From Paenibacillus sp. (GTDB taxonomy: Bacteria; Bacillota; Bacilli; Paenibacillales; YIM-B00363): a stretch of DNA of 64,000 nucleotides. Below are positions 2,893 to 62,718 of this stretch, in pieces. The number at the start of each line of letters is the position of its first letter. Within the stretch, counting starts at the first letter, position 1. A program made the position numbers and the translations under genes. Under the pieces are notes generated by a model that worked only from the letters and a program-made list of their open reading frames with translations, was not told where the DNA came from and did not search any database. The stretch spans positions 39,011 through 103,010 of the forward strand of contig NZ_DASQNA010000017.1 of NCBI RefSeq assembly GCF_035645195.1, read 5' to 3'.

Positions 2893-3030
2893 ATGCCGAA
2901 AACCGAGGAATACGACGAAACGCTGACGGAGCTGCAACGGGAAGTCCAAGAAGCGCTGAGGGGATTGCCCGGCATCGGCTCCCCCGGCGAGGACGCCGAA
3001 GCGAGCGATCATCTGGACACGTTGGTATAG
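2893..3030 (+). CDS. Small acidic hypothetical protein (45 aa)
   Basis: AAGGAG 9 nt before ATG 2893; MPKTEEYDETLTELQREVQEALRGLPG...; followed by a terminator. Confidence 0.45.
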   Translation: MPKTEEYDETLTELQREVQEALRGLPGIGSPGEDAEASDHLDTLV

Positions 3031-3078: not shown

Positions 3079-3094
3079 GCTAATGCGCCGCGAG

Positions 3095-3462
3095 CCGTAT
3101 GGATCGTCGGCGTGCAGCCCCGTTATGGGAAGCATGTATGCAAAAGAAGGGAGGCCCCTGCCCATAATTAGCATACGTCCTTCCCATAATGCGCCGCGCG
3201 CCGTCTGGAGCGTCATGTGTGCAGCCGCGTTATGGGAAGCATGTATGCAAAAGAAGGGAGCCCCCTGCCCATAATTAGCATACGTCCTTCCCATAATGCG
3301 TCTCGCGCCGCCTGGATCGTCGGTGTGCAGCTCCGTTATGGGAAGCATGTATGCAAAAGAAGGGAGCCCCCTGCCCATCTTTAGCATACGACCTTCCCAT
3401 AATCGCCTCGCGCTGCCTGGCTCATTGGCGTGCAGCTTCGTTAAGGGAAGTGTGTGTATGCA
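3095..3462. repeat. Tandem array of 105-107 bp units with internal inverted repeats (3 full + 1 degenerate)
   Basis: TTATGGGAAG starts at 3123, 3230 and 3336, with a degenerate copy at 3441. Each full unit closes with its complement CTTCCCATAA and has an inner GTATGC/GCATAC pair. Confidence 0.9.
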
Positions 3463-7426: not shown

Positions 7427-8146
7427 CTAGTGACGCAGGGGCGGCGCATCGCTGGCCGGCTCGTTCCGCCGCGACGCATGGAGCGCCCCGTCCGAGCCGA
7501 GGGCGGCGTAGAACACATCGCCGACCGAATCGATGCCCTGCTCCTTCAGCCGCTCCTCCAGCCACTCCCGGCTCAACCCCTGCCGCGCGAGCGTATCCTC
7601 GTTGACGACCCCTTCCACGACGACCGTGTATGAGTACGGCTGTCCCTGCTCCAGCACCGTCAGCTTGCCGTTGCCTTCCACGATCGCCATCTCGACGCGG
7701 CTGACGTCGAACACTTGCTTGTCCCGCAGCATTTGGAGAACGATATCGACGGTATAGCGGATGGAGGCGATATTGCGGTCCAGCAGCTTGCCCCGGTACA
7801 CGACGACCGTCGGCTCGAACGACGTCACCTGCCGGAACCGGCGAAACCGGACGGCCGCTTTCGAGAACAACCGCTCCATCACCACGACCATGACGATGGC
7901 CGCGGCGGTGTGCGCATGGCCGATCTGAGGGTCGGCGATGTCGGAGGCGACGACCGAGCCGAGCGTCAAGACGACGAGCAGGTCGAAGACCGGCAGCTCC
8001 CCGACCGACCGTTTGCCCATGAATAACGCAGCCAACAGCATGAGGGGGAAGATGGTGGCGGTCCGGGATACGACCAGCCATAAATCCGCGAACGGCGACA
8101 TCGCGTGCGACCTCCCACCGGCGAAAGGATATGAGCTTTGAGTCAT
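7427..8146 (-). CDS. DUF421 (YetF-like) membrane protein
   Basis: MGKRSVGELPVFDL, FEPTVVVYRGKL and IVEGNGKLTV motifs. The start may be at the second Met. Confidence 0.85.
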   Translation of the reverse strand: MTQSSYPFAGGRSHAMSPFADLWLVVSRTATIFPLMLLAALFMGKRSVGELPVFDLLVVLTLGSVVASDIADPQIGHAHTAAAIVMVVVMERLFSKAAVRFRRFRQVTSFEPTVVVYRGKLLDRNIASIRYTVDIVLQMLRDKQVFDVSRVEMAIVEGNGKLTVLEQGQPYSYTVVVEGVVNEDTLARQGLSREWLEERLKEQGIDSVGDVFYAALGSDGALHASRRNEPASDAPPLRH

Positions 8147-14814: not shown

Positions 14815-15243
14815 TTATTGGTAGTAGCCTTGGTTGAAATGAGAAGGCTGTTGGATCGCTTGGTTCGCGATCGAGCCCATCGTTTGGCGAACCGTCGATT
14901 CCAGCTGGCGGCACGCCTGCACCGCTTGCTGCAGCGCGTTGATCGCATGATAGTGCTCTTGCAGCATGTGCTGGATTTGCTGCGCGTTTTGCTGCTCGAG
15001 CTGCGCCATTTGCGTTTGCTCCTGCAGCATCTGTTGGATGCGCTGCGCGTTTTGCTGCTCCATTTGCGCCATGTGCGCCTGCTCATGCATCAGCTGCTGA
15101 ATGCGCTGCGCGTTTTGCTGCTCGAGCTGCGCCATTTGCGTATACAGCTGGTTGTGCTGCTGCGTCTGCTGGATGACTTGCTGGCAGAGCGCCTCGATTT
15201 GCTGGAACTGCTGCGAGATTTGGTTCGTTTGCGCTTGGTGCAT
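14815..15243 (-). CDS. Gln-rich protein (142 aa) with three 21-aa repeats
   Basis: AGGAGG RBS before ATG 15243. Repeats: QMAQLEQQNAQRIQQLMHEQA / HMAQMEQQNAQRIQQMLQEQT / QMAQLEQQNAQQIQHMLQEHY. Confidence 0.8.
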   Translation of the reverse strand: MHQAQTNQISQQFQQIEALCQQVIQQTQQHNQLYTQMAQLEQQNAQRIQQLMHEQAHMAQMEQQNAQRIQQMLQEQTQMAQLEQQNAQQIQHMLQEHYHAINALQQAVQACRQLESTVRQTMGSIANQAIQQPSHFNQGYYQ

Positions 15244-20045: not shown

Positions 20046-20091
20046 CGCGAGCCGGCCGGGCTGGCGGCGGTTTCTCCGGCGCCCGCGGCCG

Positions 20092-20652
20092 GGAATAGTC
20101 GGATTATCTCCGACTAAATCGTCCCAACCAGCGCCCGCGGCGGGAATAGTCGGAGTATCTCCGACTAAATCGCCTCAACCGGCGCCCGCGTCCGGAATAG
20201 TCGGAGTTTTTCCGACTAAATCGCCTCAACCGGCGCCCGCGTCCGGAATAGTCGGAGTTTCTCCGACTAAATCGCCTCAACCGGCACCCGCGTCCGGAAT
20301 AGTCGGAGTTTCTCCGACTAAATCGCCCCAACCGCCGCCCGCGTCCGGAATAGTCGGAGTATCTCCGACTAAATCGCTCCAACCGGCGCCCGCGGCCGGA
20401 ATAGTCGGAGTCTCTCCGACTAAATCGCCTCAACCGGCGCCCGCGTCCGGAATAGTCGGAGTTTCTCCGACTAAATCGCCCGAACCGCCGCCCGCGTCCG
20501 GAATAGTCGGAGTTTCTCCGACTAAATCGCCCGAACCGCCGCCCGCGACCGCAATAGTCGGAGTTTCTCCGACGAAATCGCCCCAACCGGCGCCTGCGGC
20601 CGGAATAGTCGGAGTTTCTCCGACTAAATCGCCCGAACCACCGCCCGCGGCC
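20092..20652. repeat. 11 x 51 bp tandem palindromic array
   Basis: Unit starts at 20092, 20143, ... 20602, exactly 51 bp apart. Most units contain TAGTCGGAG-N3-CTCCGACTA (units 1 and 10 have one mismatch) plus a GC-rich, slightly variable 21 bp linker. Confidence 0.95.
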
Positions 20653-20669
20653 GCCCGTCGAAGTTTCGC

Positions 20670-23718: not shown

Positions 23719-23794
<76 letters not shown>

Positions 23795-54269: not shown

Positions 54270-54348
54270 TTCGGTAACCCGGCCACCATAGATTCGTCAT
54301 CCTTAGGTCCGAGGCTTTGCGTCTCCGCCTTTCGACGGATTTGCCATT
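54270..54348 (-). ncRNA. c-di-GMP-I (GEMM) riboswitch
   Basis: Minus strand GGCAAATCCGTC-GAAA-GGCGGAGACGCAAAGCC...CTAAG...TATGG...GTTACC. Confidence 0.93.
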
Positions 54349-54417
54349 ATCGAAGCAGTGATATATTTGGTTGATAGAGCGATTTCGAATGTTGTCGATT
54401 TTTTGTAGGTAATGTTG

Positions 54418-60860: not shown

Positions 60861-61020
60861 GCTTGCGTCGGGGGAGGAGGGCAGTTGCGTTGCTGGGGGG
60901 CCGGGCCGCCCGTGGCTCCGCCGCTGCCCGCAATCCTCGCCCGCAGCCGCTCTCTGGAAACCGCTCCCTTGGAACTAGGTTTCCGCGTCCGCTTCCCGCA
61001 CCGCGCTTCCGCGTCTGGCC

Positions 61021-61245
61021 ATCTGCACCCGCATCCCCACCCGGCAACCGCGCCCCGCAATCCAGCCCGGCCATCCGCGCCCGCATCCGCGCCCCGTATC
61101 CGCACCCCGTATCCGTGCCCCGCAATCCATTCCCGACCATACGCGCTCGCATCAGCGCCCCGCAATCCAGCCCGGCCATCCGGGCCCGCATCCGCGCCCC
61201 GTATCCGCTCCCAGCATTAGTGCCCCGCCATCCGCGCCCCGCATG
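61021..61245. repeat. C-rich degenerate repeat region with a 54 bp block repeated at 105 bp spacing
   Basis: GCGCCCCGCAATCCAGCCCGGCCATCCGsGCCCGCATCCGCGCCCCGTATCCGC at 61050 and 61155; built from ATCCG-containing subunits. Confidence 0.8.
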
Positions 61246-61263: not shown

Positions 61264-61947
61264 TTAATGCCCTGTCCCTTCGTGACACCGGGTTCCGCTA
61301 GGTACCGAATACCCGGTAATGCGCCGATTCGTCGGGCGATGCGGAAGGAGCGATCCGTCGTGCGCCAGCTTTTGCAGCCATAAATAAGCCGTTTTTCGAG
61401 TAACGCCGAACCGTTGAGAGACATGCTGCACTTTAATGATCCCGCGTTGGACGGCGAGCGAAACGATCTCGGATTTCCGTTTCGCCCAGAGGTGATCGAC
61501 CGTGGAGATTTGGCAGTGGTGGGCGACGATCAAACATTTGCCCACCGCTTGCACGAGCTGCCTTCTGCAAAGCATCGGCTTCTTCATCACCATGTTCGCG
61601 GTAAACCGGACTAGGATCCATCGACCGCTTAAGACGAGGTCGTTTTGCCTCTCTTGATGGTCGTCGTACTGCTGCGCGGTTAAACCGTCGACGTGATACC
61701 TATAGCCATCGATTTCAATGATGATACGGATGTCGCCGGATTCGTAATAGAAATCGAGAAACCGGTTGCCTCCTTTGTAGTCTTTGACGCGAAACTGGGC
61801 GTGGAGCCCGTTGAAATTGAACGAAAACTCGGGTCCGAAGACTTGGTCTAGAAACATGCATTCGATTTCGTTCAACCGCGTGTCGATTCCGCCGCGCCGG
61901 AACTTCTCCTCCACGGACTCCACGTACTTTCTGACCTCGGGGTGCAT
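61264..61947 (-). CDS. Vsr/DUF559-like nuclease fused to a C-terminal winged HTH
   Basis: FLDF...IIEIDGYRYH...ERQNDL...WILVRFT nuclease pattern. C-terminal VQHVSQRFGVTRKTAYLWLQKL helix-turn-helix. GGAGG RBS. Visibly lower GC than its neighbours. Confidence 0.75.
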   Translation of the reverse strand: MHPEVRKYVESVEEKFRRGGIDTRLNEIECMFLDQVFGPEFSFNFNGLHAQFRVKDYKGGNRFLDFYYESGDIRIIIEIDGYRYHVDGLTAQQYDDHQERQNDLVLSGRWILVRFTANMVMKKPMLCRRQLVQAVGKCLIVAHHCQISTVDHLWAKRKSEIVSLAVQRGIIKVQHVSQRFGVTRKTAYLWLQKLAHDGSLLPHRPTNRRITGYSVPSGTRCHEGTGH

Positions 61948-61968
61948 TCGCCTACCTCCTCTAACAAA

Positions 61969-62011
61969 TAAAAAAAGCACGCATGGATCCGGTTAGGTTC
62001 CATGTGTGCTT
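61969..62011 (-). terminator. Leader terminator ahead of the nuclease RBS
   Basis: 13 bp stem AAGCACACATGGA / TCCATGCGTGCTT (one mismatch) followed by a T tract, about 10 nt before the RBS. Confidence 0.6.
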
Positions 62012-62024
62012 CACATTTAGTTTT

Positions 62025-62053
62025 ATTGTAGTAGGGCGGGCGGAGGTTGTCTA
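62025..62053 (-). promoter_or_regulatory. sigmaA-like promoter of the nuclease gene
   Basis: TAGACA-N17-TACAAT. Confidence 0.6.
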
Positions 62054-62109: not shown

Positions 62110-62718
62110 TATGGGTAGGAGGTACGCGAAATAGCGGAAGGGTAGTTACATAAGTTGGGTAGGAGGTACACATAATGGCGGCGGGGAGTGCGGTGGAAGC
62201 GCAGGAGCCGGCGGTTATGGGTACGAGGTACACAAAATAGCGGAAGGGTAGTTACATAAGTGGGGCAGGAGGTACACATAATGGCGGCGGGGAGTGCGGG
62301 GAGAGCGCGGGAGCGGGCGGTTATGGCTAGGAGGTACGCAAAATAGCGGCAGGGTGGTTACATAAGTGAGGCAGGAGATTCCCATAATGGCGGCGGGGAG
62401 CACGGGGGGAGAGCGTGTGCGGGCGGTTATGGGTAGGAGGTACGCAAAATAGCGGAAGGGTAGTTACATAAGTGGGGCAGGAGGCACACATAATGGCGGC
62501 GGGGGGTGCGGTGGAAGCGCCGGAGCGGGCGGTTATGGGCAGGAAGTATGCATAATAGCGGAAGGGTAGTTACATAAGTAGGGTAGGAGGTACACATAAT
62601 GGCGGCGGGGAGTGCGGGGAGAGCGCCGGAGCGGGCGGTTATGGGCAGGAGGTAGGCATAATAGCGGAAGGGTAGTTACATAAGTGGGGCAGGAGGTACA
62701 CATAATGGCGGCGGGGGG
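62110..62718. repeat. 6 x 106 bp tandem direct-repeat array
   Basis: GTTACATAAG at 62145, 62251, 62357, 62463, 62569 and 62675, exactly 106 bp apart. Each unit has two related AGGAGGTAC subrepeats spaced 44 and 62 bp. Confidence 0.95.

Follow-up and report, generated by a model that had tools for sequence, protein, structure and literature searches.

Two tandem arrays with a period of 106 bp, separated by 59 kb in a 64-kb stretch of DNA (hereafter the window) from an uncultured Paenibacillus, are, on the alignment of their units, diverged copies of one repeat family, and one of the two lies beside a gene for a nuclease fused to a winged helix-turn-helix (wHTH) domain. Arrays of this kind accompany the nuclease-wHTH gene in most of the related species examined, which suggests a partnership between a repeat and an enzyme. 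The source bacterium, uncultured and Paenibacillus-like, is known from biocrust metagenomes. The arrays near 3.1 kb and 62 kb of the window are referred to as array A and array B, respectively, and the positions of all the features are collected in Table 1.

Table 1. Positions of the repeats, genes and other features, in the window unless another record is named
Feature	Position	Strand	Details
Array A	3081-3450	.	TRF: period 106, 3.5 copies, 89% match
First inverted motif pair of array A	3123-3141; 3171-3189	+; -	TTATGGGAAGCATGTATGC; TTATGGGAAGGACGTATGC
Array B	62110-62716	.	TRF: period 106, 5.7 copies, 88% match
Flagged motif copy in array B	62533-62551	+	TTATGGGCAGGAAGTATGC
Sister motif copies in array B	starts 62109, 62215, 62321, 62427, 62639	+	
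Second, degenerate direct copies in array B	core starts ~62157, 62263, 62369, 62475, 62581, 62687		
Nuclease-wHTH gene	61264-61947	-	227 aa; N-terminal DUF559/Vsr-like PD-(D/E)XK nuclease domain, C-terminal winged helix-turn-helix
Promoter-like site and conserved leader	61948-62053	-	TAGACA, 17 nt, TACAAT; leader hairpin fold z -3.3
Second tandem array at the nuclease locus	61017-61244	.	TRF: period 13/52 bp; directly downstream of the nuclease gene
Array A ortholog	L024 5676-5977		period 106, 2.8 copies, at contig end; metagenome contig
P. cellulosilyticus arrays at the nuclease homolog	L028 3255-3688 and 4614-5307		upstream period 51/153 bp
Further P. cellulosilyticus 51-bp arrays	record positions 1106398, 1125963, 1247517, 1267438 and others		
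Conserved ~45-codon ORF	2894-3030	+	also L024 5439-5576, L025 about 7540-7680
P. thermotolerans nuclease reading frame	L011 610-1251		
Periodic repeat	14954-15183		63/126 bp
51-bp tandem array	20076-20653		11.3 copies
tRNA gene	23719-23791	+	
Low-GC island	~26000-50000		GC 0.28-0.40
c-di-GMP-I riboswitch	54270-54355	-	84.5 bits

Two arrays and their common motif

The units of both arrays follow one another at nearly constant intervals, with start-to-start spacings of 107 and 106 bp in array A, where a degenerate fourth unit extends to ~3480, and of 106 bp four times in array B. The 106-107 bp unit of array A is composed of a GC-rich spacer of ~42 bp and an imperfect palindrome of ~65 bp. Array B is G-rich on the plus strand and hence C-rich on the sense strand of the nuclease gene (GC skew -0.52). 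The motif copy flagged at 62533 is identical at 17 of 19 positions to TTATGGGAAGGACGTATGC, the reverse complement of 3171-3189. The motif copies of array A alternate in strand (3123+, 3171-, 3230+, 3278-, 3336+, 3384-), the first inverted pair being repeated at 3230-3296 and 3336-3402, with inverted arms of 29-36 nt. In array B, all six motif matches lie on the plus strand and no inverted repeats were found. In each unit of array B the motif is followed, 44 bp further on, by another direct copy, which is more degenerate and has the core GGG(Y)AGGAGGTAC, and thus both arrays contain one motif pair per unit, spaced by 44/62 bp in array B versus 48/58-59 bp in array A. An earlier note on this DNA had claimed the 17 of 19 match, a period of 105-107 bp in both arrays, and a geometry of inverted pairs at 3.1 kb and direct copies at 62 kb; a recount, the TRF periods together with the unit spacings, and the strand listing, respectively, agree with these claims.

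A search of the 64-kb window with a degenerate 19-mer allowing up to three mismatches, for which 100 shuffled sequences served as the null, retrieved 12 matches against 0.47 expected, a number that none of the 100 shuffles reached, and every one of the 12 falls within arrays A and B. Variation among the units resides mostly in the GC-rich spacer, the motif segments being spared.

The consensus units of the two arrays were compared by global alignment, free in rotation and strand, and the scores were judged against shuffled nulls (about -4 +/- 3). Array B(+) scored 13 against the reverse complement of array A and 11 against A(+), and 23 against the reverse complement of the array A ortholog (7 on the other strand). 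On the evidence of these alignments, the two arrays share homology over the full length of the 106-bp unit, in opposite orientation, as diverged copies of the single family that the earlier note had proposed. The ortholog lies on a metagenome contig (L024) downstream of an RmuC gene, as array A does, with an RmuC identity of 95%; it keeps the same 106-bp register, is identical to array A at 79 of 106 positions, and both palindrome arms have changed concordantly. No array was found at the corresponding place in the more distant relatives TRM 82003 and L026. A conserved ORF of ~45 codons (MP.TEEYDETLTELQREVQEALRG...) with its own terminator is situated just upstream of array A and recurs on contigs L024 and L025, being present with or without the array.

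Further copies of the family were sought in the metagenomes. Contigs of the biocrust runs contain a hybrid unit, in which a B-like left half is joined to an A-type inverted arm, and several repeat flanks with no counterpart in the window. In the source metagenome, the words of the motif segment add up to a depth of ~12-15 genome equivalents versus 3-6 copies in the arrays, that is, 2-4 times the copies of the two arrays. The word depth and the extra flanks indicate that more motif copies exist, in numbers that are not assignable to one genome; two arrays of the family were seen in about 72 kb of sequence. A paired-motif scan of a metagenome contig collection without the window's own contig gave two irrelevant matches, one a single site of low GC and the other a repeat within coding sequence, and is silent on dispersal, while the five single motif matches in viral contigs are each consistent with chance.

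The arrays were further examined for RNA structure and coding potential. On neither strand do the units of array B fold better than their shuffled versions (z -0.8 and -0.7), the unit of array A has a hairpin, as RNA or DNA, with a fold z of -2.5, and an Rfam search at the gathering threshold and at E <= 1 gave no family match to the repeats, only generic hairpin noise. With array B devoid of an RNA fold and the Rfam search negative, a hairpin as the shared property of the family is excluded, in accordance with the earlier note, which had placed that property elsewhere. Short ORFs of 21-28 aa with a Shine-Dalgarno sequence (SD) and ATG occur in every array B unit; they were rejected as coding sequences because the period is not a multiple of three, the frames differ and the GGAGG is part of the motif. 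The arrays were likewise rejected as CRISPR, since there are no unique spacers and the repetition, at 88-89% identity, takes in the entire 106-bp unit.

The nuclease-wHTH gene and its leader

The nuclease-wHTH gene, present in one copy in the window, is separated from array B by 162 bp. Searches of Pfam and NCBIfam with the 227-aa protein detected a weak REase_MTES_1575 domain together with an HTH domain (HTH_28/DeoR), the DUF559/MTES_1575 score of 19.7 bits being below the curated cut-off of 38.2 bits. An alignment of 23 homologs shows D65, E78, D80, H85, Q101-N102-D103 and R114-F115 to be invariant, so that the catalytic residues are intact. The AlphaFold (AF2) model is a confident one, with a pLDDT of 86.7; its top Foldseek match is 3hrl (DUF559-type endonuclease-like, probability 1.00), followed by wHTH folds of the MarR, CRP and Zalpha types. 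The homologs are named in the databases as 'DUF559 domain-containing protein' or as very-short-patch-repair endonuclease. The domain searches, the alignment, the model, the structural matches and the database names together identify a PD-(D/E)XK nuclease fused to a wHTH domain, and by its sequence and predicted structure the protein has the DUF559/Vsr-like PD-(D/E)XK fold with the D...E-x-D...H signature. It resembles the DUF559/Vsr-like family (NGO0050, PDB 3hrl) in its top structural match, in the D...ExD..H motif and in an RFT signature, but differs in the C-terminal wHTH fusion and in the association with tandem arrays; literature searches on DUF559 returned no paper that describes DUF559-wHTH genes in company with tandem arrays.

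The close family of the nuclease is small and confined to Paenibacillus. A word-based search yielded 30 homolog clusters and five loci in species-representative genomes, nearly every cluster being known from one or two contigs, and an exhaustive search yielded 25 representatives at E <= 1e-30 and 219 at E <= 1e-10, many of the latter being ~220 aa in length and spanning both domains. No relatives of the nuclease were found in viral contigs or GenBank phages. The recognition helix occurs in the variants RKTA, RNTA and RRTA, which track the motif types and also the phylogeny; covariation of helix and motif was therefore set aside as unusable. In the P. thermotolerans locus, the frame stops after 12 codons from the conserved start and the database protein begins further downstream, which may reflect a frameshift or a decaying copy.

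The gene is preceded by a promoter-like site and a conserved leader. In the window, the leader contains an invariant GTGAAGCACAC that opens a hairpin (62016-61972), followed by a U-run, the SD and the ATG. This layout is common to 13 loci (the window, L004, L005, L007, L009-L013, L016-L018 and L027), with the consensus of a -35 element T(A/G)GACA, 17 nt, a -10 element TAAAAT, 7-9 nt and the invariant GTGAAGCACAC. The conserved -35/-10 pair sits between the upstream array and the leader hairpin. Since its loop is variable in sequence and length, the hairpin resembles a terminator/attenuator or a stabiliser at the 5' end. The leader of the distant homolog of P. cellulosilyticus is without GTGAAGCAC, yet has a hairpin with a U-run ahead of the SD. 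The tandem array that adjoins the nuclease gene on its downstream side has a unit of about CCCGCATCCGCGC on the plus strand; it is G-rich on the nuclease-sense strand, a skew opposite to that of the 106-bp arrays, and belongs to an unrelated sequence family.

Arrays at the gene in related species

The association of the gene with arrays was assessed at 13 distinct loci of the close nuclease family, an array being counted when TRF reported a period of at least 90 bp within 700 bp of the gene. Long-period arrays are present at 9 of the 13 loci. In total, 13 such arrays occur in ~27 kb near the gene versus three in 167 kb elsewhere, an enrichment of ~27-fold, which has to be read in the light of a background of only ~170 kb, of the general frequency of arrays in this genus and of ~6-8 independent lineages; two of the three background arrays are array A and its ortholog. 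No long-period array was reported by TRF at the remaining four loci, and one of these contigs ends 337 bp upstream of the gene. Three further contigs end 610-820 bp upstream or 432 bp downstream of it, and such contig ends, 337-820 bp from the gene in all four cases, are expected of collapsed repeats in assemblies. Another of the four loci, L027, whose gene is a syntenic ortholog with 81% identity, has kept about two degenerate units that are visible only by eye, which points to a fast turnover of copy number.

The gene occupies at least six genomic neighbourhoods among the 13 loci (ArAE/HAD-Spo0M; CopD/Tex; MGDG synthase/methyltransferase; PMI/B12-radical-SAM; PGI-region/CheR; AraC-region). 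The periods recorded near it are 104, 105, 105, 105, 106, 106, 106, 107, 107, 116, 150 and 171 bp, and those of 104-107 bp account for 9 of the 13 arrays, in five lineages between which the units do not align clearly. At any one locus, the upstream and downstream arrays are of a single unit family, and the families differ between lineages. Alignments of units across lineages reached a z of 3-4.4 at most against mononucleotide shuffles, and homology at this level was treated as not demonstrated. In 8 of 9 lineages, the gene-sense strand of the arrays is rich in C (GC skew -0.16 to -0.52), and the downstream arrays begin 14-56 nt past the stop codon, at most loci with no obvious terminator in between.

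The core of the motif, GGGNAGGNNGTAC, was found again in the arrays of three other species. A position-weight matrix of the window motif matches the sequences of other species solely in or beside their arrays, and all the matches are antisense to the nuclease gene (4 of 4 in L005, 3 of 3 in L009 and three in L007). The motif of the window is absent from the arrays of P. antri, L010, L011 (P. thermotolerans) and L006, whose proteins are 50-61% identical; P. antri, L010 and P. thermotolerans have other motifs instead. The earlier note had named a protein-binding motif and helical phasing as the properties shared by the family. Motif and period do outlast the rest of the unit, as seen from the core in the arrays of three other species and from the periods of 104-107 bp in five lineages; protein binding and helical phasing remain predictions, and a strict rule of ten helical turns is weakened by the periods of 116, 150 and 171 bp and by that of 51/153 bp at the distant homolog.

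This distant homolog, with 27% identity, is encoded on a complete 2.7-Mb replicon of P. cellulosilyticus and has arrays on both sides, the downstream one consisting of 13.6 units of 51 bp directly past the stop codon. In the 200 kb of this replicon that were sampled, 51-bp arrays occur in at least seven more places, far from the nuclease gene and belonging to other sequence subfamilies, and thus arrays can occur without an adjoining nuclease.

A candidate partnership and its alternatives

It is conceivable, with slightly less than an even chance in our judgement, that this dispersed minisatellite family is the DNA partner of the nuclease-wHTH protein, by analogy with REPIN/RAYT systems. The family would comprise fast-evolving, dispersed intergenic tandem repeats, a bacterial minisatellite with a unit of ~106 bp, in which a variable GC-rich spacer is combined with a conserved segment holding two ~13-19-bp copies of the motif (core GGGNAGGNNGTAC), inverted as in array A or direct as in array B. 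The winged helix is predicted to read the motif in the array units, and the PD-(D/E)XK site to nick or cut in or near them. Repair of the breaks by recombination or slippage would let the arrays expand, contract and occasionally seed elsewhere, and the cycle of breaks and repair would keep the gene embedded in its own repeats. With a period of ~106 bp, or close to ten turns of the helix, successive motif pairs would come to lie on one face of the DNA, which may favour cooperative binding. In favour of this reading are the whole-unit homology of arrays A and B with the hybrid unit, the ortholog of array A in the same register, the enrichment of arrays at a gene that occupies varied neighbourhoods, the contig ends, the arrays on both sides of the distant homolog, the antisense motif matches in other species, the spared motif segments, the recurrent period, the invariant catalytic residues with the modelled fold, and the metagenome word depth with its extra flanks. 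Against it stand the four loci at which TRF reported no long-period array, the arrays that lack the window's motif, the unusable covariation of helix and motif, the deviating periods, the 51-bp arrays far from the nuclease in P. cellulosilyticus and the unrelated family of the array downstream of the gene, as well as the C-richness of the sense strand, which would fit a strand-specific role, as RNA or single-stranded DNA, as well as simple descent.

In the REPIN/RAYT system, a short nuclease gene in single copy has a lineage-specific repeat type of its own on its flanks, and the repeats form inverted doublets with a spacer, tandemly reiterated doublets and copies elsewhere, with a quick turnover of copy number (PMC3337134, PMC3733652, PMC8266576). 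The gene described here is similarly a single-copy nuclease gene flanked by lineage-specific repeats, at 9 of 13 loci. The enzyme, however, is a PD-(D/E)XK DUF559/Vsr-like protein with a wHTH domain and not an HUH Y1 transposase, the repeats are mainly long tandem arrays with a fixed period of ~106 bp, and the host is a Firmicute. The REPIN/RAYT repeat is a short palindrome (stem of 5-13 bp) tagged with GTAG or CGTC, typically in inverted doublets; array A has imperfect palindromes with long arms, array B has none, and GTAG lies within the core of array B and L024, where array A reads GAAG. REPIN/RAYT copies are dispersed in tens to hundreds; here, two arrays were seen in ~72 kb, and the metagenome depth indicates ~12-15 copies. 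The system is thus not a member of REPIN/RAYT, since the defining enzyme differs and array B is without a palindrome, but REPIN/RAYT is its closest analog.

Two other repeat systems share traits with the arrays. Alpha-satellite DNA contains the CENP-B box, a short box bound by a protein derived from a pogo transposase. The likeness lies in a conserved box, here predicted to bind protein, within a long drifting tandem unit whose period is kept while its sequence turns over; alpha-satellite is eukaryotic and centromeric, and no homology or chromosomal role is implied here. BIME-type clusters are tandem, alternating inverted palindromic units with fixed linkers that are bound by gyrase or IHF, a geometry that is present in array A and absent from array B.

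A more far-reaching formulation is possible but doubtful, namely that the arrays and the gene represent an unrecognised class of repeat-enzyme system, in which a PD-(D/E)XK-wHTH protein would recognise a box in ~106-bp units and would maintain, resize and disperse the arrays, as an independent Firmicute analog of REPIN/RAYT with a period held by selection on nucleoprotein geometry. To our knowledge, the persistent repeat families tied to a dedicated single-copy enzyme in bacteria are essentially only REP/REPIN with RAYT, and these not in Firmicutes. If the partnership is true, a second and mechanistically unrelated example would imply that such arrangements evolve repeatedly, and a branch of the large, uncharacterised DUF559 family would gain its first biological context. 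If specific cleavage is confirmed, the protein would offer a small nuclease with sequence specificity and a target that is naturally present in many copies. The retention of a 104-107 bp period amid sequence turnover is a bacterial counterpart of satellite-DNA behaviour, and the question of what sets a repeat period becomes experimentally approachable because P. antri, P. thermotolerans and P. cellulosilyticus, members of a culturable genus, carry the system. In practical terms, the arrays break short-read assemblies beside the nuclease gene.

The strongest of the alternatives, unlikely but to be taken seriously, is that the arrays are neutral, self-propagating minisatellites, common in these Paenibacillus, and that the nuclease-wHTH gene is independent of them, as a selfish or mobile cassette, similar to a homing endonuclease, that lands by preference in arrays or survives there, in which case the adjacency of gene and array would be uninformative on motif binding. 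The many contexts of the gene (at least six) are in keeping with a mobile cassette, as are the common family of both arrays of a locus, as if one array had been split, the 51-bp arrays of P. cellulosilyticus that have no nuclease alongside (at least seven in 200 kb) and the two further unrelated arrays in the window. As for the phase of the units, L018 and L010 show rough continuity from one side of the cassette to the other, in favour of this alternative, and P. antri shows a break, from 50 to 1, against it. Moreover, the locus is syntenic in the window, L027 and P. antri, which indicates vertical inheritance in these three species, and there the arrays persist at the same period. The conservation of the motif segments above the spacers and the occurrence of the core motif in several species also argue against this alternative, and no pair of an empty and an occupied site was found.

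Rather improbable is a role of the arrays as RNA, whereby C-rich repeats transcribed upstream of the nuclease or in its 3'-UTR would regulate or neutralise it in the manner of a type III toxin-antitoxin system such as ToxIN. ToxI-type repeats are ~34-45 nt in length, with the promoter upstream of the array and a pseudoknot fold, and the toxin is an RNase of the ToxN fold. As in the type III systems (ToxIN, CptIN, TenpIN), a direct-repeat array lies by a small nuclease gene, and the succession of array, terminator-like hairpin with U-run and nuclease gene is the ToxIN layout; the closeness of the downstream arrays to the stop codon, mostly with no obvious terminator between, and the C-richness of the sense strand in most lineages also fit transcribed repeats. 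However, the conserved promoter, of sigma-A type, separates the upstream array from the hairpin, so that the nuclease gene would have its own start, and arrays are found downstream of the gene and at orphan loci too, array A being without a nuclease gene. Units of 104-107 bp without a shared fold or an Rfam match, those of array B unstructured on either strand, do not conform to the ToxIN repeat RNA. The enzyme, with 3hrl and wHTH folds as its structural matches, is modelled as a DNA-nuclease fold with a wHTH domain and is not an endoribonuclease of the ToxN/AbiQ fold. PADLOC and PHROGs gave weak matches confined to the C-terminal HTH region (PADLOC best E 0.0011), and PADLOC gave no match of the protein to a toxin-antitoxin or nuclease model.

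It is improbable that the arrays serve as clustered sites for a different protein, nucleoid-associated or regulatory, or as transcription insulators, with the nuclease only a frequent neighbour. The phased architecture of the motifs would suit such sites, and array A is placed between a terminator and the promoter of the next gene and has weak terminator-like sites on its minus strand, once per unit. This alternative offers no reason for the arrays that bracket a rare, clade-restricted gene in many neighbourhoods. No promoter-like sites were found inside array A or B, which also led to the rejection of a promoter array.

Very improbable is the remaining alternative, that the units are true REP/REPIN elements with a GTAG tag and owe their mobility to an HUH tyrosine transposase (RAYT) whose gene lies elsewhere in the genome: GTAG does lie within the conserved core (GGGTAGGAGGTAC; TGTGTAGCATGTAC in L024), and REPs occur in tandem clusters and as dimers of the head-head, tail-tail and, rarely, head-tail types (PMC3733652, PMC3337134), whose geometries mirror the inverted array A and the direct array B, but the motif of array A reads GAAG, array B is without a stem-loop, the repeat-flanked gene is not a RAYT, no RAYT gene was seen in the partly annotated window, and GTAG REPs are unreported in Firmicutes (PMC3733652).

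Several other features of the window were recorded. Its GC content is about 62%, and a low-GC island with consecutive plus-strand ORFs, one of them for a DegT/DnrJ/EryC1 aminotransferase, is probably a horizontally acquired polysaccharide-biosynthesis cluster. A TGCTG/CAGCA-rich periodic repeat probably lies within a coding region. A tRNA gene was located, and a c-di-GMP-I riboswitch upstream of a FapA-like gene. A 51-bp tandem array follows a TatD-like gene; its unit is made up of a hairpin, TAGTCGGAG-TNTC-TCCGACTA, and a GC-rich spacer, and its period and architecture are those of many 51-bp arrays of P. cellulosilyticus, including the ones that flank the nuclease homolog.
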